Made by a program: the position numbers and the translations under genes. This document shows positions 24,076 to 39,262 of a stretch of DNA of 39,262 nucleotides, in pieces. The notes under the pieces are model-generated. The model ran no database searches. It was given only the letters and a program-made list of their open reading frames with translations, and was not told where the DNA came from. Where the stretch lies: IMG/VR virus record IMGVR_UViG_2513237200_000009; one strand, given 5' to 3'. Source of the stretch: a virus (lineage: Duplodnaviria > Heunggongvirae > Uroviricota > Caudoviricetes). Position 1 is the first letter of the stretch. The number at the start of each line of letters is the position of its first letter.

Positions 24076-25842
24076 ATGAACACCACACTGACACCCGCAG
24101 ATCTCGATCCCCGTCGGCAGGCCATGCTGCTGTACTTTCAGGGATACCGCGTAGCCCGCATTGCTGAAATGCTGGGCGAGAAAGTTGCAACCGTTCACAG
24201 CTGGAAAAAACGCGACAAGTGGGGTGACTATGGGCCGCTGGATCAGATGCAGCTCACCACCGCCGCACGCTACTGCCAGCTCATTATGAAGGAGCACAAA
24301 GAAGGGAAAGATTTCAAAGAGATTGACCTGCTGGCGCGCCAGTCGGAGCGCCATGCGCGGATCGGCAAGTTTAACAATGGCGGCAACGAAGCCGACTTAA
24401 ACCCTAACGTCGCCAACCGCAACAAAGGCCCGCGCCGTCAGCCGGAAAAGAACGTTTTCACCGATGAACAGATTGAGAAGCTGGAAGAAATCTTCCATTC
24501 CTCCATGTTCAACTACCAGCGCCACTGGTGGGAAGCCGGAAAAACCAACCGCATCCGCAACCTGCTGAAGTCACGCCAGATCGGCGCGACCTTCTATTTT
24601 GCCCGTGAAGCCCTGATTGACGCCCTGCTAACCGGGCGTAACCAGATTTTCCTTTCCGCCAGCAAGGCACAGGCCCACGTCTTTAAGCAGTACATCATCG
24701 ACTTCGCCAAAGAAGTGGAGGTGGAGCTGAAAGGCGATCCGATGGTGCTTCCTAACGGGGCCACGCTGTACTTCCTCGGCACCAATGCCCGCACGGCCCA
24801 GAGTTACCACGGCAACCTGTATCTGGATGAATATTTCTGGATACCGAAATTCCAGGAGCTGCGCAAAGTGGCTTCCGGTATGGCTATTCACAAGAAATGG
24901 CGACAGACCTATTTTTCCACGCCATCCAGTCTGACACACAGTGCTTATCCGTTCTGGTCCGGTGCGCTGTTCAACCGTGGGCGCAACAGAGCCGATAAGG
25001 TGGACATCGACCTGTCCCACAGCAATCTGGCCCCCGGCCTGCTGTGCGCAGACGGGCAATACCGCCAGATAGTCACCGTGGAAGATGCGGTGCGCGGCGG
25101 CTGTAACCTGTTCGACCTTGACCAGTTGCGCATGGAGTACAGCCCTGACGAATACCAGAACTTGCTGATGTGCGAGTTCGTGGACGATCTCGCGTCCGTG
25201 TTCCCGCTCAGCGAATTGCAGGCGTGCATGGTGGACAGCTGGGAAGTCTGGACCGACTTTCATGCACTGGCCCTGCGCCCGTTTGGCTGGCGCGAAGTGT
25301 GGATCGGTTATGACCCGGCAAAAGGTACGCAGAACGGCGACAGCGCCGGATGCGTGGTGGTGGCACCGCCAGCCGTGCCAGGCGGTAAGTTCCGCATTCT
25401 TGAGCGTCACCAGTGGCGCGGAATGGACTTTCGCGCCCAGGCTGACGCCATCAAAAAACTGACCGAACAGTACAACGTGACCTATATCGGCATCGACTCA
25501 ACCGGCGTTGGTCACGGGGTTTACGAGAACGTGAAAGCGTTTTTTCCTGCCGTCCGGGAGTTTGTCTACAACCCCAACGTTAAAAACGCCCTGGTACTCA
25601 AGGCCTACGACATTATCAGCCACCGCCGTCTTGAGTTTGACGCCGGGCACACCGACATTGCGCAGTCATTCATGGCAATCCGTCGCGCCACCACCGCCAG
25701 CGGCAACCGCCCGACCTATGAAGCCAGCCGCAGCGAAGAAGCCAGCCATGCCGATCTGGCCTGGGCAACAATGCACGCACTGTTTAACGAACCACTGCAG
25801 GGCGAGTCCGCCAATACCAGCAATATTGTGGAGATTTTTTGA
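24076..25842 (+). CDS. P: terminase large (ATPase) subunit gpP
   Basis: 588 aa, P2 P size; divergent from O. Confidence 0.9.
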   Translation: MNTTLTPADLDPRRQAMLLYFQGYRVARIAEMLGEKVATVHSWKKRDKWGDYGPLDQMQLTTAARYCQLIMKEHKEGKDFKEIDLLARQSERHARIGKFNNGGNEADLNPNVANRNKGPRRQPEKNVFTDEQIEKLEEIFHSSMFNYQRHWWEAGKTNRIRNLLKSRQIGATFYFAREALIDALLTGRNQIFLSASKAQAHVFKQYIIDFAKEVEVELKGDPMVLPNGATLYFLGTNARTAQSYHGNLYLDEYFWIPKFQELRKVASGMAIHKKWRQTYFSTPSSLTHSAYPFWSGALFNRGRNRADKVDIDLSHSNLAPGLLCADGQYRQIVTVEDAVRGGCNLFDLDQLRMEYSPDEYQNLLMCEFVDDLASVFPLSELQACMVDSWEVWTDFHALALRPFGWREVWIGYDPAKGTQNGDSAGCVVVAPPAVPGGKFRILERHQWRGMDFRAQADAIKKLTEQYNVTYIGIDSTGVGHGVYENVKAFFPAVREFVYNPNVKNALVLKAYDIISHRRLEFDAGHTDIAQSFMAIRRATTASGNRPTYEASRSEEASHADLAWATMHALFNEPLQGESANTSNIVEIF

Positions 25843-26867
25843 TGGGAAAGAGTAAGAAGAACCGCGCTGCGGCGACGAAACAGATCCAGCATAAAAACCA
25901 GACTTCAGCCGAAGCATTCAGCTTCGGTGATCCCGTTCCTGTTCTGGACCGCCGCGAACTGCTGGACTATGTGGAATGCGTACAGATGGACCGTTGGTAT
26001 GAGCCACCAGTGAGTTTCGACGGCCTGGCGCGAACCTTCCGCGCCGCCGTACACCACAGCTCACCGATTGCAGTAAAGTGCAACATTCTGACCAGCACCT
26101 ATATCCCTCACCCGTTGCTCAGCCAGCAGGCTTTTTCACGTTTTGTGCAGGACTATCTGGTATTTGGTAATGCCTACCTGGAGAAACGCACGAACCGCTT
26201 CGGTGAAGTTATCGCCCTTGAACCTGCCCTGGCAAAATATACCCGACGCGGATTAGACCTGGATACCTACTGGTTTGTGCAATACGGTATGGCAACCCAG
26301 CCGTATCAGTTCACGAAAGGCAGCATCTTTCATCTGATGGAACCGGATATTAATCAGGAGATCTACGGCCTGCCTGGCTATCTTTCTGCTATTCCATCCG
26401 CTCTGCTCAACGAGTCCGCCACGCTGTTCCGCCGGAAGTATTACATTAACGGCAGTCATGCAGGCTTCATCATGTACATGACCGATGCCGCGCAAAACCA
26501 GGAGGATGTGAACAACCTCCGCAACGCAATGAAAAGCGCCAAAGGACCGGGTAACTTCCGCAACCTGTTTATGTACTCGCCTAACGGCAAAAAGGATGGG
26601 CTTCAGATCATTCCTCTGTCAGAAGTCGCGGCGAAGGATGAGTTTCTGAATATCAAGAACGTGAGCCGGGACGACATGATGGCGGCGCACCGCGTACCGC
26701 CGCAAATGATGGGGATTATGCCTAGCAATGTCGGGGGGTTTGGGGATGTAGAGAAAGCTAGTAAGGTATTTGTGCGGAATGAGCTTTTACCTTTGCAAAA
26801 ATTGATGCAAGCGCTTAATTGTTGGCTGGATGAAAATATAATTACATTTAATAAATATATTTTGTAG
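25839..26867 (+). CDS. Q: portal protein gpQ
   Basis: 342 aa, overlaps P stop, P2 Q size. Confidence 0.9.
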   Translation: MMGKSKKNRAAATKQIQHKNQTSAEAFSFGDPVPVLDRRELLDYVECVQMDRWYEPPVSFDGLARTFRAAVHHSSPIAVKCNILTSTYIPHPLLSQQAFSRFVQDYLVFGNAYLEKRTNRFGEVIALEPALAKYTRRGLDLDTYWFVQYGMATQPYQFTKGSIFHLMEPDINQEIYGLPGYLSAIPSALLNESATLFRRKYYINGSHAGFIMYMTDAAQNQEDVNNLRNAMKSAKGPGNFRNLFMYSPNGKKDGLQIIPLSEVAAKDEFLNIKNVSRDDMMAAHRVPPQMMGIMPSNVGGFGDVEKASKVFVRNELLPLQKLMQALNCWLDENIITFNKYIL

Positions 26868-26882
26868 TTCCTGTTTATAATT

Positions 26883-26912
26883 AACGCCTGCCTGAGCAGG
26901 CGTTCTTTCATT
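26883..26912. terminator. hairpin terminator between convergent Q and the DUF262 gene
   Basis: aacgcctgc ctga gcaggcgtt followed by ctttcattt. Confidence 0.55.
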
Positions 26913-28689
26913 TAAAACGTGTTGCAATATCTGCTGCTTCGATAACTGTTGCTTTTACGGTATTATCGCCAGCACGATAATAAATATCCCCATCATAACT
27001 AGAATAAGATGCTAGAAGTGGAATTGTAATAACTATAACTCCATAACCATAAAAGTCATTATAGTCAATCAAACTCACCACTTGTGATTTAAGAGGCTCA
27101 CTCAAAGCAGATTTTTTCAACTCATCGCAAAAACGTCTATAATATTCTTCCATTGATATGCCGAGTTTAATAGCTTCTCTTTTAACACCAACAACACTTC
27201 TCTCACCAACTACATGTGCATCTATATCATCAAGCTCTTTTACTCTACTTGTATCACTTGGTTTATCTGTTACACCAAGCAATAACTTACCAACTACACC
27301 GTTCTTGTTACCTTTACCGATGTTAGCAATAGCACAAATTGTGGAGAATATTTTCTCATGAATGCCATCATCAATAGTTCGCTCTCCGCCTAACATCAAC
27401 AAACCCTGTTTCAGTTCATAATTTGCAAGCTCTATTTCAGATCTTCGTAAAATATCCTCAATATCCACCGTATTGTGAGAATTATAGATATGACTGCTAT
27501 CGGCGCTATCAATAAAGTTATCTTTAATCAAGCCTATGATAGAATTAATATTCTTTCTTCTCTCTTCCCCACCAGTAGCAGATCTTTTAGTATCTAGTCG
27601 AGTGACTATATTATTAAGATTGTCTTTTACACCTTTATAATTATTAATCTTCTTATTTTCTTTAATGAGTAATTCATGAAAAGCAATAAATAACACAGCA
27701 AATATGGCTGGGAAAGCATTTGTAGTACGTTTAGTAAAGATTAAATCCCTGAGTTTAATTTCACCGTCACTATTACATACTTTTGTTATTTCCTGGATGC
27801 AGAATTTAAACTCTTCTGCAAATTTTCCTTCACCATAAACATTAATAGCAGAGCTAATACGACTATACTCTTCATCTTCATTATTATAAATCTGATCAAG
27901 CGCATCTTTGGAACGATCTATTAACTTACCTCCAACAATACAAGCTGCTATATCTGCAATGCATTGCTCATCCATACTGTCACGAAGGTCTGTTGAACGT
28001 AAGATCCCATGTTTTACCCAAAATACTTCTTCCGACTGAATTTGGTAACCATGTTTAGTTAGTGGCAAATCAATGCTAATAGACGGCATTTGCTCTAAAA
28101 GCAATATGTCGTCAGATACATCCCCCCTGATAGAACAGGCAATATCCCTAACCATATTTGAAAATTTATTTTGTATACCAGCCTGGCGCCTTTCTTGATC
28201 ACTAAGTCTATGCCCGTATGTATTAATTCTATCAAAAACATCATTTATTTCGTTCTCAGTCGCATTACGCATAATGGACATTGCAAGAGAATAATCCAAT
28301 AACTGAGTAACCTCACGCTGACTTAAAAGATTATCAGCTTTCACTGCAACAAACTTACCTTCATCCGCTCGATTTTTCGCTGTGGGAAAAGCGTCCAGAT
28401 TAAAACGTTTTCCATCAAGTGATTCATATCCTGTTTCGATGAAAGACATTATTGCATGTAATCTTTGTAGGCCATCAATTATTTCATATGTGCCAGGATC
28501 ATTTTCCCTTTCCGCGAGAAGAACTGCAGGAATTGGATATTTTTTTTGAATGGATTCAATTAATTTTTGTTTCTCTATTGCAGTCCAAACTAATTTTCGT
28601 TGATAACGTCTATTAACAAATATCTTACCTTCAGTAAACCATGAATAAATAGTTTGTATAGAAGTTGTTTGCGGTAATAGTTCAGCCAT
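26908..28689 (-). CDS. DUF262 (ParB-like nuclease / GmrSD N-terminal domain) protein, candidate defence gene
   Basis: 593 aa, AT-rich; N-terminal ...FVNRRYQRKLVWT...YEIIDGLQRLHAI... (DGxQR motif); C-terminal region unassigned. Confidence 0.75.
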   Translation of the reverse strand: MAELLPQTTSIQTIYSWFTEGKIFVNRRYQRKLVWTAIEKQKLIESIQKKYPIPAVLLAERENDPGTYEIIDGLQRLHAIMSFIETGYESLDGKRFNLDAFPTAKNRADEGKFVAVKADNLLSQREVTQLLDYSLAMSIMRNATENEINDVFDRINTYGHRLSDQERRQAGIQNKFSNMVRDIACSIRGDVSDDILLLEQMPSISIDLPLTKHGYQIQSEEVFWVKHGILRSTDLRDSMDEQCIADIAACIVGGKLIDRSKDALDQIYNNEDEEYSRISSAINVYGEGKFAEEFKFCIQEITKVCNSDGEIKLRDLIFTKRTTNAFPAIFAVLFIAFHELLIKENKKINNYKGVKDNLNNIVTRLDTKRSATGGEERRKNINSIIGLIKDNFIDSADSSHIYNSHNTVDIEDILRRSEIELANYELKQGLLMLGGERTIDDGIHEKIFSTICAIANIGKGNKNGVVGKLLLGVTDKPSDTSRVKELDDIDAHVVGERSVVGVKREAIKLGISMEEYYRRFCDELKKSALSEPLKSQVVSLIDYNDFYGYGVIVITIPLLASYSSYDGDIYYRAGDNTVKATVIEAADIATRFK

Positions 28690-28823
28690 GAAACAAATTC
28701 CTTCTTCTGGATAGAATTTTATAATATAGAAACTGAAAAGGTTAAGTTACCATCAAAAATGATGATAGCAACAAAAAGATACCATTTTGTAATTTTTTGT
28801 TCAGATTTTCATATCAGAGCGCG

Positions 28824-28842
28824 CTCGTATCCCCGCCACGCC
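28824..28842 (-). promoter_or_regulatory. candidate cos cohesive-end sequence
   Basis: minus strand GGCGTGGCGGGGATACGAG resembles the remembered 186/P2 cos 5' ends (GGCGTGGCGGGGAAAGCAT / GGCGAGGCGGGGAAAGCAC) over the first 13 nt. Confidence 0.3.
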
Positions 28843-29221
28843 TGCCCGCTTTATGCAGTGGTTTTCATGCACATGCATGACATGAGCAAAAGCCCGCCAG
28901 TTCTGGCGGATCTGAGCAAAGACGATCCTCAATCGATCATGCGATTTCATGCAGCATAGTCATGCACTGTCAAGGAAGTGAAAATCCGTATCTGAATGGC
29001 CACTTGAAAAACGGATCATACGGGTTTACAAAGATGAATGTTCGCTGTGAACGGGAAGCGGAAGTTAACTTTCAGATAACATAATCCATATGCACGAGAA
29101 CCTCTAAAATAGAATGGGACACCTAAGTGGGGTACTTACAACGATTCTTTCCATATTCACAGTTAACACTCTGTTTGGCGTATTTTTATTCAAATAGCAA
29201 ACACCAATAAAAGGAGTTTCC

Positions 29222-29557
29222 ATGAACAATATTCCCCCTATACCACAGTTAGGAATTTATGTCTCAAAAATCGATCCCACCCTACGTATCACTGTAACCG
29301 ATGTTGATATTGTTGATGGTGAGGATGATTCTCCTGATGATGAATTGTTTTATTTAGTCCACTGGATCGAGGGGGAAGATGAAAGTGATATGACAGCAAT
29401 GGGATTTGAGCTAGACCCAGTAGAGTGGCAGGCTTTCGTTGAATCTGAGCAATTAGTGTTTGAGCGTGATCCGTACATGGATTCAATCCCCGAAAATTCA
29501 AACTTGGCAAAGATTCGGGATTTTCTCATGAAGACTAAACAGAATGATCATTCGTAA
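29222..29557 (+). CDS. small highly acidic hypothetical protein
   Basis: 111 aa with strong SD AAGGAG; about 26 Asp/Glu against about 7 Lys/Arg. Confidence 0.65.
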   Translation: MNNIPPIPQLGIYVSKIDPTLRITVTDVDIVDGEDDSPDDELFYLVHWIEGEDESDMTAMGFELDPVEWQAFVESEQLVFERDPYMDSIPENSNLAKIRDFLMKTKQNDHS

Positions 29558-29749
29558 GTGTAAGCATCCATCAGGAAAATGGTTTTGTAAGTGAATCATC
29601 AACTTTTAGAGAGTCTCAGACACTCCCACTTCTGCTTCTGACACAAAGCGGACGATCACTTATCAAAATAACCGCCCACCTTACGCCTTATTTCACTCAT
29701 TGCCCAAACTAGCCCCCATCAGAATGAATCCTCCTGGGGGCAACATTTC

Positions 29750-29983
29750 TTAATGCAGCCAGCTGTCGTCCTCCCACACCTTCTGCATAATTTTCATCAC
29801 TTGTTTTCTTTCTTCATCCAGTTGCAGTCCGGTTAGTTCCACACCGTTAGAGCTACCTTTGCGAATGCGAATTACCGTTTTGGGATACAGGGGGCGCAGA
29901 TTGCGGTAAAGCTCGGATTCAAGTGCGTCCAAGGTAGACTGGCTAATCTTCTGCTCTTTATCGATCATTATTTCAATGCGCAT
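29750..29983 (-). CDS. DinI-family protein
   Basis: MRIEIMIDKEQKISQSTLDALESELYRNL...VIRIRKGSSNGVELTGL...VWEDDSWL resembles E. coli DinI; SD GAGGTG. Confidence 0.75.
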   Translation of the reverse strand: MRIEIMIDKEQKISQSTLDALESELYRNLRPLYPKTVIRIRKGSSNGVELTGLQLDEERKQVMKIMQKVWEDDSWLH

Positions 29984-29993
29984 AAAAGTCACC

Positions 29994-30182
29994 TCAGCTG
30001 ATGACATCCATTGAGCGGTTGTATTCGTGGCTTCTGATTTTTGCCATGAGTTCATCAGTCAATTCAGAAACCCACTGCAGAGCCAGCCCCTTCTCTTCAT
30101 CACTACACTCACTAGCCGCTACAAGCTTAAGAAAAAAATCAATGCGCTGGAGCTTCAAAGACTCCAAAAAATAGTCCTGCAT
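29994..30182 (-). CDS. small protein, first gene of the LexA-controlled operon (possible Tum-like antirepressor)
   Basis: 62-aa ORF starting 40 bp downstream of the LexA box; translationally coupled to the DinI-like gene. Confidence 0.5.
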   Translation of the reverse strand: MQDYFLESLKLQRIDFFLKLVAASECSDEEKGLALQWVSELTDELMAKIRSHEYNRSMDVIS

Positions 30183-30222
30183 CTTTCCTCCTATGACACC
30201 AAAACAATACTGTATACATAAC

Positions 30223-30242
30223 CACTGTTTATATTTACAGTA
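30223..30242. promoter_or_regulatory. LexA operator (SOS box)
   Basis: cACTGTttatatttACAGta fits CTGT-N8-ACAG with an AT-rich spacer; directly upstream of the minus-strand operon. Confidence 0.6.
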
Positions 30243-30334
30243 TATAATAATCTTACTGATGTAAAACGTTTTTTTACGTTCATCGGCCTGATATGCCTGG
30301 TATTATTAAGAGCACGAATTGTTAACCCGCGTAA

Positions 30335-32749
30335 TTAATACAGGTTCCGCCACTTATCATCTTCCTTCAGACGCTGGTTCCGATAGAAGATACGCAGGCC
30401 TGCTCCTGACGGAATACTGCCGCCGCGAAGGAGCAAATCGACTTCTTTCTCGCTGCCATCAAATCCCCTGGACTTCAGTTCATAGACGAGCTGCTGTCGC
30501 TGATGGTCTGTAATTCGCTGTTTGTAGTCTTTACGCCGTTTCGGTTTCACCTGGCGTAACCTTGCAGCCAGTTCCCGGCGCTCTTTTTTGCTCATACTGT
30601 GCAGGTAATCGTGCAACTCCTTGTCATTCATACGGGTAATATCCGTTCTGGAGTCCCCATCAGCTGATTTGTCTTTCCCTTGTTGGTTCAAATTTTCAGC
30701 AAGGGGACAGTTATTGCCACGAGTCCAAGGGGCGCAAGCGCCCTGGTCGGCTACCGCCTCCTGAACGTCAACGGCCTTACGAACCATTTTCCACTTCACT
30801 GCATGAGTGCAGATCTTGCCCTCTGAAATGGGTGACCAGATGCCATAAATACGAATACCGTGATCGCCATAGGCAGTCGGCTCTTCGTTAATTTCATAAG
30901 CTGTTCTGATAAGGTGATATTTGCGGGGAACCAGTACGCCGCCCTGCTTCATGATGTAGGTGGCAAAACAACCAGCATCAGCAGCAGCCAGGATGGCATC
31001 AAGACGCGGATCATCCAGTACCGGCGCACCTGCTTTTTTGTCACCCTGTTGCCTTGCCGCCTGACCAGCCAGCAATCGCAGTTCACGGTAAGCCTGGCGC
31101 CCCGGAATACCAAAGAAGCGGAACTGCTGAACACGATGCAGAGACGCCCAGGCATTAACGTATTCGGCGTTATCACGCAGGGATTTACCCGTTTCCTTGC
31201 TGATCTCGCCAGCCAGACCACGCCCGTCAATGTTCTTACTGATGTATTTTGCGATGTAGCTTGTCGGCGTTCCTTTGCGTGGGTTTATCAGCTCAGACTT
31301 AAAGCGTGGGCCCGTGTTATTGCCCAGCTCCTCGCGGTCTTCACGGATGGCAAACTTACGCAACAATGCAGTAATGGCGCGGCGGTCTTTTTTGCGCATG
31401 AAACACATGAGATGCCAGTGCACAGTACCGTCATGGTGCGGCTCAGCCACCCGTACGCCATACCAGCGCAACCCGGTTTTGTGCATCGCCTTACGAAATG
31501 CAGCAAACATGCCGACCAGATAATCGCTGCTTTGTCTTACCGTCGCATTTGTCCAGGTCGGGTTGGGCCTGCCGTTATTGAGCGTGGAATGGAAACGTGA
31601 CGGACATGTGATGGTGTAGAAAACGGCGCAGTCACCGCGCATTTCCGCGATAAGCTCCAGACCTTTAACGCAGGCCATCATCTCATTGCGGCGATGTGCC
31701 GGGTTGCTGCTGCTGGCGTTTACCACATCTTCCATATCCAGCGTGTCTCCGTCTTCGTTCACCAGTTCATGAGAACGGAAAAACTCCAGCGACTTGCGGC
31801 GCTGCTCACGTTTATGCATCACGGCTTCATAGCTGACATAGGGAGATGCTTTTTTGCTGACCAGACAGACAGCACGCAACTGCTCTTCCCGCCATTCGCA
31901 ACGCATCTTCCACAATTTTCGATACCACCAGTCGGCGCAAAGCATACGTGCCAGCGAACCCGGTATGAGTTCATAGGGCACAGGTTTGCGGCGGTTTCTT
32001 TTCCGACGAAGTTTCTCAAACGCAGGCGGGATAACATCCAGACGCAGGGTTTCCGCTGCCACCTTTTCCCATGTCTTGCGGATTTCTTCTGGCTTTACGT
32101 CATCGTTGGTATACAAATCACCACAAGCGGCCTCAAGACACATGCTCATATGCGCAGCTACCAGGGTGGACAGGCGTTTCACCTGATCCTGACTCATTTC
32201 AGGCAGGATCAGCAGGCCCTCCAGCCCTTGATGGCTTGCCATAAAACGGAAAGAAGTAGATAGCTGACTGTCGCGTACACAATCCAGTCGCTCCAGACAT
32301 GGCTTAATCGTCTCACGCAAATAGCGGGAATAAGCCTTTGGCCTGCCCAGGCTGCTGAAGTATTCGATACGTTGCATCAGCGGCTTGCTGATGTGGGTGG
32401 GCTGGGCGCTGACGTCCGCCAGAATGACCATGTCCGGGTTAAAACGCTGCTGCTCATGCGCCAGCTTTGCCCGACTAATGAGCTTATCCTGCTCCATTTC
32501 GCGCTGGACAGGATCACGGGATTCATTAAAGAAATAACGCTCCCAGACCTGTTCACTCAATTCCTCGCGGCGCAGCTGTTCCTGCTCGTTATCGGCAGCA
32601 TACAGAGTGATCAGGTTTGAAAGCGCAGAAACCGGCGCAACTTCCGCCGGGTCCAGATAAGGGTTTATGGCCTTTTTCGGGCCGTTCCATGAAAATGCTG
32701 CAGCGGCCTCGTTAAAGCCGCTAGAGTCGCTCATATCGGCATGACTCAT
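30335..32749 (-). CDS. A: replication initiation protein gpA
   Basis: 804-aa ORF in the early operon, position as P2/186 A. Confidence 0.8.
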
Positions 32750-35967: not shown

Positions 35968-36113
35968 GGTGCAACATTCCTTCTTTAATTCGGCTTGTGG
36001 CGAGCCGTTGTTTATCGTGATTAGTTGTGAAGGCTCCAAAAGAAGACTTCGAGGTCAACTTTAAGATCGCTTTTGGAATCTGTCAATGCAATTTAGATTG
36101 TTTTGGAGGACTC

Positions 36114-36677
36114 TTGAATTTCAATAGCGGCGGAAAGAAAGTGATTGAACGTTTGGTTGAGGCGTATGGTTTCACCACTCGTCAGGCCCTTTGCGACCAC
36201 TTAGGGGTTTCAAAGAGCACAATGGCAACCCGCTACATGCGTGACATTTTTCCAGCAGATTGGGTACTTCAATGCGTTGTAGAAACTGGTACTTCAATTG
36301 ATTGGCTGGTATCAGGGAAAGGTGAGTTAAAAACCACAGCAGTCAACTCTTTGGTAGACGTTGAAACTCGCGAACTAAAAAATGGAGAGGCTATTGCACT
36401 TGGAACGCACAAGATTGATCCAGTCTTTCTTCTCAATGAAATAAAATCTGCATTAGCGATAAAAATTAACCAACATGTTTACATTTGTGACCGAGAAGAC
36501 ACTACCATTTCTGATGGTCAATGGTTGGTGGATATAGAAGGAAAACTGAGTATTAAAAAAATCAATTTGATACCAGTCAAAAGAGCAATGGTATCTGGGG
36601 ATGGTTTTTCATTTGAATGTGATATTAGTGATATAAAACCTATAGCTAAGGTTCATACCGTAATCAGTGAGGCTTAA
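36114..36677 (+). CDS. cI: immunity repressor CI (186 CI family)
   Basis: ..ERLVEAYGF...QWLVDIEG...FECDISDIK parallels remembered 186 CI; probable TTG start after GGAGGA. Confidence 0.75.
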   Translation: MNFNSGGKKVIERLVEAYGFTTRQALCDHLGVSKSTMATRYMRDIFPADWVLQCVVETGTSIDWLVSGKGELKTTAVNSLVDVETRELKNGEAIALGTHKIDPVFLLNEIKSALAIKINQHVYICDREDTTISDGQWLVDIEGKLSIKKINLIPVKRAMVSGDGFSFECDISDIKPIAKVHTVISEA

Positions 36678-38129
36678 ATGGATATTGAGTGGAATTGGGA
36701 TCAAGATGACGAATTTCTTGGTGAAAAATTACCTGCAGATACATTGGACAGAAAAAAGTACGCAAAATATCTTTATGAAATCTGTGCTGCACGCGGTGCT
36801 AAATCCAATCTCGTAGTTAACATTAATGCGGAATGGGGGGCTGGAAAAACATATTTTACTAAACGCCTAGCCAAGACAATTTCCCACTACCATCCCACAA
36901 TATACATTGATGCTTGGAAAGAAGATTTTACTGAAGACCCATTGCTCACAGTATTTAGTGGAATTAAAGATCAATTATCTGGTCAATCTGATAGCTTTAC
37001 TGCTTTAATCAATTCAACAATTGAGAATGTCGGTCCTTTGCTAAAAACAGCGGCACCAGTTATTATTGATGGATTAATACAAAAGTTCACAGGGGTTGAC
37101 TCCTTTTCTAACCTAACTAAAGACTTATCATCTAAGCTAATAGAAATACACGCAGAAAAATCAACGAGAATAGAGACAGTAAGAAAAGGAATTAGTCGTT
37201 GGGTTGAATTCATTGGGCGAAAAGATGGAATAGATAAAGAGCTTCCATTATTTATAATAATTGATGAACTTGATAGATGTAGGCCCGATTTTTCCATTAG
37301 TCTTTTAGAAATCTCCAAGCATATTTTTAACATCCCTGGCGTAGTATTTATTATTGCCACTGACACCCAACAATTACAGCATTCAATAAAAGTTATATAT
37401 GGCACTAATTTTTCAGCAAGTCATTATCTAAGCAGGTTTTTTGACCGTCGATTCCTTCTCCCAACGCCAGAATACAAAGACTTACTATTAACAAAAACAG
37501 GTGAAAACATAATTTCGGAATTTAATTCTTTACGTGAAAAATTAATTCCATGCCCACAAGACATCACATCATTTGTTAAAAATTGTTCATCCATATTATT
37601 ATCCATAAAAATAAACATCAGAGACGCTGTAAAAATATACGAGAGGCTAATAGACATACTTATCACGTCAAATAAAACATTTGACCCCAATCTAATGTTG
37701 ATATTATCTGCATTTAATTTCAAAGATCATGATGTATATGCAAAAATAAAATCAAAAGAAAAGCTAATTCCTAGTCCTCTCAACACAGAAATAGATTTAT
37801 CATTTGATTTATCTTATGAAACTACACAAGTCAAGTACTTCCAAGCTAATGGTGGTGTTTATAGTAATACGTATAAACAAAAAGAAATTTCAACAAATGT
37901 TCTATTTTACATAGAGACTGCTTGGAACACCTTAACGATAGCAAGAACCGCACCTGTTGGCACGCGACCTTACAATACTCCAGAACTTTGGATGGAAGGA
38001 GAGTTGTCTCAGGAGGAATCATTAGCGAACTTTCTCAAAATGGGATACGCCAAAAGCCGGTACAATGAAAGTGAACTAAAAATTCATCAATATTTCGATT
38101 TAATTGAACTGAGCACAACATTTGATTGA
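36678..38129 (+). CDS. KAP-family P-loop NTPase (PifA-like), candidate anti-phage/exclusion protein
   Basis: 483 aa, AT-rich; Walker A AEWGAGKT with the KAP-typical Trp, Walker B IIIDELDRC; ATG immediately follows the cI stop (TAAATG). Confidence 0.8.
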   Translation: MDIEWNWDQDDEFLGEKLPADTLDRKKYAKYLYEICAARGAKSNLVVNINAEWGAGKTYFTKRLAKTISHYHPTIYIDAWKEDFTEDPLLTVFSGIKDQLSGQSDSFTALINSTIENVGPLLKTAAPVIIDGLIQKFTGVDSFSNLTKDLSSKLIEIHAEKSTRIETVRKGISRWVEFIGRKDGIDKELPLFIIIDELDRCRPDFSISLLEISKHIFNIPGVVFIIATDTQQLQHSIKVIYGTNFSASHYLSRFFDRRFLLPTPEYKDLLLTKTGENIISEFNSLREKLIPCPQDITSFVKNCSSILLSIKINIRDAVKIYERLIDILITSNKTFDPNLMLILSAFNFKDHDVYAKIKSKEKLIPSPLNTEIDLSFDLSYETTQVKYFQANGGVYSNTYKQKEISTNVLFYIETAWNTLTIARTAPVGTRPYNTPELWMEGELSQEESLANFLKMGYAKSRYNESELKIHQYFDLIELSTTFD

Positions 38130-38158
38130 TGTATGAGTTCACCTAAACATACATTGAC

Positions 38159-38178
38159 CACTGTTTAAACATACAGTT
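38159..38178. promoter_or_regulatory. LexA-box-like palindrome upstream of int
   Basis: caCTGTttaaacatACAGtt fits CTGT-N8-ACAG; could be a chance match. Confidence 0.35.
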
Positions 38179-38184
38179 AAATTT

Positions 38185-38209
38185 AGCCCTCAGACATGAG
38201 GGCTTTTTT
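38185..38209 (+). terminator. rho-independent terminator abutting the int start codon
   Basis: agccctc agacat gagggct followed by ttttt, then ATG of int. Confidence 0.5.
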
Positions 38210-39262
38210 ATGGCAGTACGAAAACTCGACACAGGTAAATGGATATGCGAATGCTACCCCGCCGGGCGCAGCGGACGGCGTGTGCGTAAGCAATTCGCCA
38301 CCAAAGGTGAAGCGTTAGCATTTGAACGGCACATAATGGAGGAAACTGAAGCTAAGCCCTGGCTGGGTGAATCGGTAGATCGCCGAACTCTGAAAGACGT
38401 CGTTGAACTCTGGTTCAAACTGCACGGCAAATCTCTGACCGCTGGCGAGCATGTTTACGACAAGCTGATCCTGATGGTCGAAGCTCTCGGAAATCCCCTC
38501 GCCACCGATTTAACATCCAAAATGTTCGCGCACTATCGCGATAAACGCCTGACAGGAGAGATCTACTTCAGCGAGAAATGGAAGAAAGGAGCAAGCCCGG
38601 TCACTATTAATCTGGAGCAAAGCTATCTAAGTAGTGTTTTTAGCGAACTATCCCGCCTGGGCGAATGGTCGTATCCGAACCCACTGGAGAACATGCGAAA
38701 ATTCACCATCGCAGAAAAAGAGATGGCATGGCTTACCCATGAGCAGATTGTTGAATTGCTGGCTGATTGCAAACGTCAGGACCCAATTCTGGCACTGGTA
38801 GTTAAGATATGCTTAAGCACAGGCGCACGCTGGCGTGAAGCCGTAAATCTTACCCGCTCGCAGGTGACCAAATACCGAATTACCTTTGTAAGAACGAAGG
38901 GGAAGAAAAACAGAAGCATCCCTATCAGTAAAGAGCTTTACGAAGAGATCATGGCGCTTGATGGGTTCAATTTCTTCACAGACTGCTATTTTCAATTTTT
39001 ATCCGTGATGGAAAAAACGTCTATCGTGCTGCCTCGCGGTCAACTGACACACGTTCTGCGCCATACGTTTGCGGCGCACTTCATGATGTCGGGTGGAAAC
39101 ATCCTGGCCTTACAAAAAATTCTCGGACACCACGATATAAAAATGACTATGCGTTATGCGCATCTGGCACCGGATCATCTGGAAACGGCGCTCCGTTTCA
39201 ATCCTCTGGCAACATTGCCAAGTGGCGACAAAGTGGCGGCAGCGGTTGGCATTACCCCGTAA
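38210..39262 (+). CDS. int: tyrosine integrase (186/P2-type)
   Basis: 350 aa; MAVRKLDTGKWICECYP... and C-terminal ...LTHVLRHTFAAHFMMSGGNILALQKILGHHDIKMTMRYAHL catalytic region. Confidence 0.9.
   Translation: MAVRKLDTGKWICECYPAGRSGRRVRKQFATKGEALAFERHIMEETEAKPWLGESVDRRTLKDVVELWFKLHGKSLTAGEHVYDKLILMVEALGNPLATDLTSKMFAHYRDKRLTGEIYFSEKWKKGASPVTINLEQSYLSSVFSELSRLGEWSYPNPLENMRKFTIAEKEMAWLTHEQIVELLADCKRQDPILALVVKICLSTGARWREAVNLTRSQVTKYRITFVRTKGKKNRSIPISKELYEEIMALDGFNFFTDCYFQFLSVMEKTSIVLPRGQLTHVLRHTFAAHFMMSGGNILALQKILGHHDIKMTMRYAHLAPDHLETALRFNPLATLPSGDKVAAAVGITP

Follow-up and report, generated by a model that had tools for sequence, protein, structure and literature searches.

A strongly acidic DUF8087 protein beside cos in a P2-like Escherichia coli prophage: a mobile cassette and candidate inhibitor or decoy

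P2-like prophages are a main reservoir of anti-phage systems in Escherichia coli, and very few counter-defence genes are known there. A 2026 survey in Nucleic Acids Research, which covered dereplicated P2-like prophages (1511 from complete bacterial genomes), detected no more than two types of anti-defence, in 28 of them. The gpA-gpQ interval is the anti-phage hotspot of P2-like phages, and the locus table of the study that describes it lists the protein WP_001059831 as 'hypothetical' (Rousset et al. 2022, PMC9122126). Here we analyse the gene for this protein in IMG/VR record IMGVR_UViG_2513237200_000009, a stretch of 39,262 nt (hereafter the window) that is a P2-like E. coli prophage with its terminase and portal genes at 24076-26867. 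The gene, at 29222-29557, encodes a strongly acidic member of the family DUF8087. We conclude that it is cargo carried on a mobile cassette, and we regard the cassette, whose evolutionary trail is unusually clear, as a tractable candidate for a new inhibitor or decoy family.

The closest described cargo by position is the old/tin pair of P2, which occupies the same slot, from cos to the replication arm, and points in the same direction as the DUF8087 gene, away from cos toward gpA. Both the position and the variable presence that mark gpA-gpQ hotspot cargo were found for the DUF8087 gene, which, like other cargo of the hotspot, comes and goes among near-identical prophages. The products differ, in that Old and Tin are of greater size and their exclusion activity has been demonstrated, whereas the DUF8087 protein has 111 residues, no known domain and no PADLOC match. 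The 'cos-like region' that the original prediction placed next to the gene is real and aligns with the annotated P2 junction (reverse strand CGGGCA/GGCGTGGCGGGGATACGAG/CGCGC in the window, CGGGCG/GGCGAGGCGGGGAAAGCAC/TGCGCGC in P2). Each E. coli P2-like locus examined has an identical 30-mer at this site, and so has Fels-2. The cos region splits the gpQ-gpA interval into a left slot, from portal gene to cos, and a right slot, from cos to the DinI-like gene; in prophages with differing left cargo, homology breaks at 28816-28819. The DUF8087 gene lies in the right slot, its start 374 bp from cos, and the gene map bears out the predicted strand arrangement, opposite in strand to both the DinI/Tum-like gene and gpA.

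The DUF8087 gene is cargo (a moron) and not core, as the original prediction had suggested: about 12% of E. coli prophages with the DinI arm carry it, and it is found in non-phage islands too. The arm occurs in approximately 1,082 of 5,426 complete E. coli genomes, and an allele of at least 99% identity is present in 131 of these carriers. Across 27 prophage contigs from IMG/VR, cos, the DUF8087 gene, the DinI-like gene and gpA are fixed, while the stretch between portal gene and cos measures anything from 180 to 2520 bp. An identical DUF8087 protein is paired across cos with at least four different defence cargos, a GmrSD-like gene included, and also with a near-empty slot. Other left-slot cargo found with it comprises retron Ec86 (BL21), a DprA-like gene (E2348/69) and SIR2 with ParA (2014C-3307). 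The gene is present in BL21, in REL606-type B strains, in E. coli W and in enteropathogenic E. coli E2348/69, with identical copies in BL21, W and E2348/69, and positions 29100-29700 of the window are 100% identical to E. coli W and related records. Moreover, the BL21 prophage is defective, with gpA truncated and fused next to a cII fragment, yet DUF8087 is intact. The record of BL21 TaKaRa (L002, 7236-8351) retains retron Ec86, cos, DUF8087 and DinI, and its cos-to-DinI segment matches the window at 99.7% identity.

P2, Fels-2 and phage 813R9 all lack the gene. Fels-2 has a 243-aa gene in the cos-to-DinI slot, and in 813R9 the cos region and the DinI-like gene are 579 bp apart as against 1282 bp, so that the DUF8087 gene is missing. 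Other E. coli prophages have different genes in the right slot, among them DarT/DarG. In the otherwise similar prophage of E. coli RM10809-3 it is taken up by a DarT/DarG (macro domain) pair (L030, 2976-4533), from which it follows that the slot also accepts known defence systems. A structural or assembly role, or a packaging role linked to cos, was rejected, the gene being present in elements without cos or virion genes. Homologues that proved to be structural or assembly factors would have told against the original prediction. We looked for this and found otherwise: the protein is not such a factor, because its gene survives in the defective BL21 prophage, and in islands and elements resembling integrative and conjugative elements (ICE-like) that are free of virion genes, and the three phages named above do without it.

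The open reading frame (ORF) is a genuine gene and not a chance one, because it matches phrog_17127 over its full length, has 61 clusters of homologues and gives pairwise ratios of non-synonymous to synonymous substitution (dN/dS) of 0.07-0.3 (11 loci), which points to purifying selection. The phrog_17127 match spans positions 1-111 of 111 (E 2e-70). The homologue clusters came from a search of 5.8 billion proteins; every one carries PF26332 and all are from Enterobacterales (Escherichia, Raoultella, Providencia, Morganella, Citrobacter, Edwardsiella, Enterobacter, Serratia, Pectobacterium, Xenorhabdus and Klebsiella). PF26332 is precomputed on a 98%-identical representative of the window protein as well as on all homologues, and the RefSeq product name for the exact protein, WP_001059831.1, is 'DUF8087 domain-containing protein'. 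The original prediction could not assign a family; the PHROG match, the RefSeq name and the PF26332 of the homologues now place the protein in DUF8087 (PF26332), as a full-length member with no difference from the family. Both entries, PF26332 and phrog_17127, are uncharacterised, with neither a structure nor a publication behind the family. Among 1.84 billion representatives a profile search recovered 35 proteins in all, a locus search with a narrow alignment found 4 loci only among 185,579 species genomes, and tblastn against plasmids gave a single match, probably a prophage-like record. Shorter relatives (68-132 aa) have in common only core residues 5-80. A Pfam scan (2025 copy, older than the PF26332 model) and an NCBIfam scan gave no match for the window protein, a PADLOC scan matched no model, and a sequence search of the PDB with two profiles matched no chain at E<=10.

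The acidity that first drew attention to this 111-aa protein was confirmed. With 15 Asp, 11 Glu, 4 Lys and 3 Arg it has a computed net charge of -19, close to the earlier estimate, and an isoelectric point (pI) of 4.05. Asp and Glu make up 26/111 residues (23%), and at a charge per residue of -0.171 it is the most acidic protein of the prophage (the runner-up has -0.08). Net charge ranges from -8 to -22 in all 40 aligned members (40/40), down to approximately 30% identity. The positions with conserved acidic residues are 27, 32, 34, 35, 40, 41, 50, 53, 56, 63, 65 and 68, and G11 and W69 are invariant. Judged by this alignment, acidity is a trait of the family. The strong ribosome-binding site that had been noted is likewise present, 5 nt upstream of the ATG, and is kept as AAGGA in 10 loci from 8 genera.

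Comparison of these loci delimits a cassette of approximately 560 bp, roughly 29035-29593, that consists of a leader, the DUF8087 gene and a remnant of an integrase start (Table 1). We hold this anatomy, and the mobility of the cassette, with high confidence. The leader is 84-86% identical to that of island copies in Raoultella, Lonsdalea, Serratia, Symbiopectobacterium, Morganella, Proteus and E. coli ECONIH1, and the upstream non-coding DNA common to all close copies measures 130-196 bp. At the other end homology to other cassettes stops at 29593. In seven other loci, tblastn with a Klebsiella prophage integrase found stubs of 47-62 codons after DUF8087 (E 1e-8 to 3e-14). These stubs are decayed, some with stop codons, and the 10 residues left in the window are at the equivalent position. 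Another 80 E. coli genomes have a DUF8087 allele of 90% identity; it lies in an island with an integrase, beside ychF, that has only positions 29101-29593 of the window in common with it and otherwise contains an IS1182 transposase, a 1590-aa DEAD/DEAH helicase, an AAA ATPase, RadC and DUF2787. The window is itself, on alignment, a deletion derivative of the arrangement in three related loci (L066-L068), with 29593 joined to 29672: positions 28700-29593 align to L066 3445-4366, and positions 29672-30400 to L066 5646-6375. The window has lost the genes for a 127-aa transmembrane protein and a GNAT protein in this way. In every setting, whatever its neighbours, DUF8087 is under purifying selection.

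The native home of the gene appears, from gene order, to be a lysogeny operon of other P2-like phages. There the order is an Xre-type repressor (127-141 aa), an Flk_N-like tail-anchored membrane protein (209-215 aa), DUF8087 and the integrase. This order was seen in members 40-77% identical to the window protein (57-77% for those with an identified integrase), and the end of DUF8087 overlaps the start of the integrase gene by 4-14 nt. In one more distant lineage DUF8087 lies downstream of int and overlaps it. On these comparisons we conclude that the cassette was copied from the lysogeny operon into the cargo slots of several kinds of mobile element, and the decayed integrase stub makes it a clear example of a lysogeny-operon moron excised and re-used as a free cassette. 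Since DUF8087 was kept as its surroundings were lost, its function should be independent of the integrase, of the Flk_N-like protein and of any given neighbour. Moreover, the operon of origin is one that lysogens transcribe, and the native position predicts expression in the lysogen and not early lytic expression as for T7 0.3.

The original prediction likened the protein to DNA mimics and anti-restriction proteins of the Ocr type. Like Ocr (T7 gp0.3), ArdA, T4 Arn and T7 gp5.9 it is small, has a pI of about 4 and approximately 23% Asp+Glu, lacks an enzymatic domain and is borne on a mobile element; no catalytic or transmembrane domain was found in the window protein. It falls within the operational limits used for DNA mimics (<25 kDa, pI <5, Asp+Glu about 20% or more), and this is true across the family. 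Unlike those four proteins, to which it has no sequence, profile or structural match, it is predicted to form a beta-barrel with helices. Ocr is an all-helical elongated dimer that mimics bent B-DNA and inhibits type I restriction-modification and BREX, and ArdA is an array. In size, pI and acidic content the protein resembles such mimics; membership of the Ocr, ArdA or ArdB families was rejected. Three findings told against Ocr: the Pfam scan matched no family at E<=1, the PDB searches matched no chain at E<=10, and the predicted fold is not an all-helical dimer. ArdA (PF07275) and ArdB-KlcA (Antirestrict, PF03230) were rejected for want of a Pfam match. In the Morganella island a separate PF03230 gene lies approximately 4 kb from DUF8087, so the two are distinct genes.

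AlphaFold was run twice, with 40 sequences (best predicted local distance difference test score, pLDDT, 81) and with 68 sequences (five models, pLDDT 80-85, predicted template modelling score 0.71), and both runs gave the same barrel-plus-helix fold. Strands are predicted at residues 11-15, 22-31, 43-50, 61-64 and 78-82 and helices at 66-76, 84-87 and 94-109, with acidic loops at 32-42 (low confidence) and 51-60. From these models we infer a five-stranded SH3/Tudor-like barrel packed by helices and bearing two conserved acidic loops (residues 32-41 and 50-56), with the conserved residues E63, D65, E68 and W69 forming a putative patch on one face of the barrel. The acidic residues would cluster in the two loops and this one patch, which is not obviously an array mimicking a phosphate backbone; a DNA mimic is defined by charges placed like DNA phosphates that block a DNA-binding protein. 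Other small SH3/Tudor-like barrels (DUF1653 3be3, FeoA, the N-domain of CarD/CdnL and the C-terminal Tudor domain of UvrD/PcrA) show 5-13% identity, with scores at the background for small barrels, and the acidic loops and C-terminal helices are specific to DUF8087 by comparison with them. A Foldseek search with the DUF8087 model returned no match. The comparison with known DNA mimics that had been proposed as a check was run, and no Ocr, ArdA or other solved mimic matched.

How might such a protein act? We suppose that lysogens would make DUF8087 as a soluble protein of the cytoplasm and that it would work by stoichiometric binding, not catalysis. Its acidic loops and the E63/D65/E68/W69 patch may engage a basic, probably nucleic-acid-binding, surface of a partner and block it, so that the protein would serve as a charge or nucleic-acid mimic or decoy. 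The likeliest class of target would be a nuclease, helicase or sensor that serves the immunity of the host or of a competing mobile element, and the protein could then be a counter-defence factor benefiting whichever element carries it. Of these propositions, the mode of action as an acidic stoichiometric inhibitor is one we somewhat favour, and the looser idea of an acidic inhibitor of a nucleic-acid-binding protein is plausible. A specific counter-defence role, the likeliest single role on our ranking, is put forward tentatively, as a possibility that we would not back over its alternatives combined. Doubtful, though worth stating, is the fuller proposal that DUF8087 is a new family of broad-acting acidic inhibitors, with a fold unused by known mimics, expressed from lysogeny operons or cassettes and carried beside defence systems by phages, ICEs and islands, which would disarm a widespread immune system based on a nuclease or helicase or act as a decoy for the anti-defence or DNA-binding proteins of rival phages. 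DUF8087 shares slots with defence systems yet is independent of them, which makes it a plausible missing counter-defence factor or minimal exclusion factor. If it does represent a new family of acidic inhibitors, it would have no described precedent in P2-like phages.

Several observations weigh against counter-defence by an acidic inhibitor. In the structural comparison the predicted fold matched no known DNA mimic or anti-defence protein, and the W69/E63/E68 patch points to a specific partner instead of generic mimicry of DNA. T7 0.3 and other known anti-restriction genes belong to the early lytic phase, whereas the native site of DUF8087 is a lysogeny operon. The gene was found by tblastn in none of 50,697 sequenced phage records, and a literature search for DUF8087, PF26332, phrog_17127, WP_001059831 and Ybl33 found no relevant publication. 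As regards expression, a scan of 29035-29221 for the sigma-70 consensus gave no promoter site; candidates picked by eye are poor (TTCACA-19-TATTTT, and TAGAAT at 29110) and we claim none. Placement among defence genes is equally to be expected of a defence gene, and persistence in islands that are perhaps no longer mobile fits a host-beneficial defence role at least as well. At present DNA mimicry by DUF8087 might be proposed from its size, pI and acidic content, and no result so far makes its function surprising. Should the protein prove to have no immune role, extreme acidity and a hotspot location would not be enough to call it a DNA mimic.

Hotspot location and lysogen expression suit counter-defence and also a second reading, in which the protein is an anti-phage factor of lysogenic conversion, working by superinfection exclusion or as a decoy, that traps or misdirects an essential basic protein of an incoming phage (for example a single-stranded DNA-binding protein, polymerase or anti-defence protein). 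The logic would be that of P2 Tin, which acts on T4 gp32. The slots in which DUF8087 is found otherwise carry old/tin, DarTG and a KAP NTPase; Lamassu or helicase-PLD genes adjoin it in islands; and a position between repressor and integrase predicts expression in the lysogen, as for lambda rexAB, which are expressed in lysogens. It is natively paired with the membrane-anchored Flk_N-like protein, and in other copies with the 127-aa transmembrane protein, and the gene is maintained in defective prophages and islands. Against this, the window copy is solitary, without either membrane partner, no PADLOC model matches it, and no defence effector is known with such a make-up (111 aa, acidic and soluble, with neither an enzymatic nor a membrane domain). 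We think exclusion unlikely, if well worth keeping in mind. An effect on a global factor of the host is less probable still; the protein might act on H-NS, lifting the silencing of AT-rich cargo, on RNA polymerase, through a Tudor-like barrel as in CarD or the C-terminal domain of UvrD, or on the RecA/LexA circuitry.

Gene order and genetic context bear on the two remaining explanations. If DUF8087 were an accessory of the lysogeny module, serving the integrase, the Xre-type repressor or the Flk_N-like protein, the window copy would be a hitch-hiking relic. The order repressor, Flk_N, DUF8087, int is conserved among members of 40-77% identity, the overlap of the DUF8087 stop codon with the int start codon implies translational coupling, and in the other lineage the gene follows and overlaps int. 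Moreover, the C-terminus of the repressor (…GQGNRVAGRDFNETKK) and the N-terminus of the Flk_N-like protein (…NRAAGRDFHEGNIQ…) have in common a motif of 16-20 residues at 56-78% identity (L041 3934-4971, and equivalent genes in L039, L033 and L011/L012). This motif, NRxAGRDFNE, could be a common docking site, as the accessory reading would have it, or the trace of a duplication; that DUF8087 docks on it in both proteins and so forms a partner-switch is a more speculative suggestion. However, dispersed copies of DUF8087 remain intact under purifying selection while the adjoining int stub decays with stop codons. The window repressor is of a different type, its CI lacking the motif, and the CI-int slot there has a KAP NTPase instead. 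We consider this accessory role improbable, on a par with the modulation of a host factor. Even harder to sustain is the idea that DUF8087 serves the adjacent GmrSD_N/Schlafen-like gene as a dedicated partner, be it antitoxin, regulator or self-immunity factor. The two are divergent neighbours 532 bp apart, and acidic antitoxins often neutralise basic toxins, but cos separates the genes and the identical DUF8087 protein occurs with retron Ec86, DprA-like, SIR2+ParA and unknown cargos and with a near-empty slot. Conversely, the table of Rousset et al. (2022, PMC9122126) lists two arrangements in which the same GmrSD-like protein, WP_000818977, stands without WP_001059831. An obligate two-gene system was rejected for lack of co-occurrence, and we give any dedicated partnership next to no credence.

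Table 1. Features of the DUF8087 locus in the window, and the settings of copies elsewhere
Feature	Position	Strand	Remarks
GmrSD_N (DUF262) + Schlafen/AlbA_2-like gene	26908-28689	-	593 aa; left-slot cargo, outside cassette; PF03235, E 1.6e-22
cos core (cohesive-end region)	28819-28848	.	Matches annotated P2 cosL/cosR junction
Non-coding leader	29035-29221	+	Left cassette edge; homology onset 29035-29101 by locus; presumed promoter region
Shine-Dalgarno AAGGAG	29211-29216	+	5 nt upstream of ATG; from sequence
DUF8087 gene	29222-29557	+	ATG-start ORF; 111 aa; WP_001059831.1; 'Ybl33' in UniRef; net charge -19
Integrase remnant KHPSGKWFCK (29562-29591)	29558-29593	+	Right cassette edge; tblastn E 0.46, not significant alone
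Deletion scar	29594-29671	.	L066-L068 have approximately 1.28 kb here: int stub, 127-aa protein with N-terminal transmembrane helix, 139-aa GNAT
GC-rich hairpin GCCCCCA...TGGGGGC	29712-29741	.	Between convergent DUF8087 and DinI-like genes; fold of 29555-29760, z-score -2.4
DinI/Tum-like gene	29750-30055	-	Conserved right flank of slot; PF06183, E 1.2e-22; RefSeq has a shorter 234-nt version
gpA	30335-32749	opposite to DUF8087 gene	PF05840, E 6e-128
Morganella copy			Between helicase-PLD gene and KlcA/DUF932/GTPase island backbone
Raoultella and Serratia copies			Adjoin Lamassu-type genes
Lonsdalea and Symbiopectobacterium copies			Probable elements carrying a type IV secretion system (ICE-like); from ORF sequences only
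Proteus copy			Island
Xenorhabdus copy			Beside filamentous prophage

As to the leader, no LexA box was seen in it by eye. A structured RNA was dropped as an explanation, there being no Rfam match and no covarying structure (RNAalifold -8.7 kcal/mol, with a positive covariation term), and tblastn gave no signal that the leader is the remnant of an Flk_N or repressor gene. The hairpin downstream is possibly a bidirectional terminator; a terminator scan did not call it. The 127-aa protein, which has an N-terminal transmembrane helix and no Pfam match, recurs with DUF8087 in several settings, with the integrase stub between them: in P2-like prophages, an E. coli island, a Lonsdalea element and a Proteus island (L066 4323-5610, L008 5038-5421, L028 and L029 8538-8921, L072 538-918). 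The GNAT gene follows in L066-L068.

Among the neighbouring genes, the GmrSD-like gene in the left slot is probably, from its domain content, a single-gene defence candidate. Its Schlafen/AlbA_2 C-domain is weak (E 1e-3), no DUF1524/HNH half was detected in the 593-aa protein, and its best PADLOC matches are NsnA (8e-31) and PD-T4-2_A (2e-18). A 62-aa ORF at 29994-30182 on the minus strand (WP_001154431.1, no Pfam match) always lies between the DinI-like gene and gpA. The lysogeny operon of the window, at 36027-39262 on the plus strand, consists of CI, a 483-aa KAP-family P-loop NTPase (36678-38129; PF07693, E 8e-36) and the integrase. The location of the NTPase between CI and int makes the CI-int interval a third cargo slot; in Klebsiella-type P2-like phages the same slot carries Flk_N and DUF8087. 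Lastly, two records labelled 'DH5alpha' carry the window prophage at 100% identity, which one would not expect of a K-12 derivative; at 4.83 Mb they are similar in size to E. coli W, and the strain labels may be wrong.

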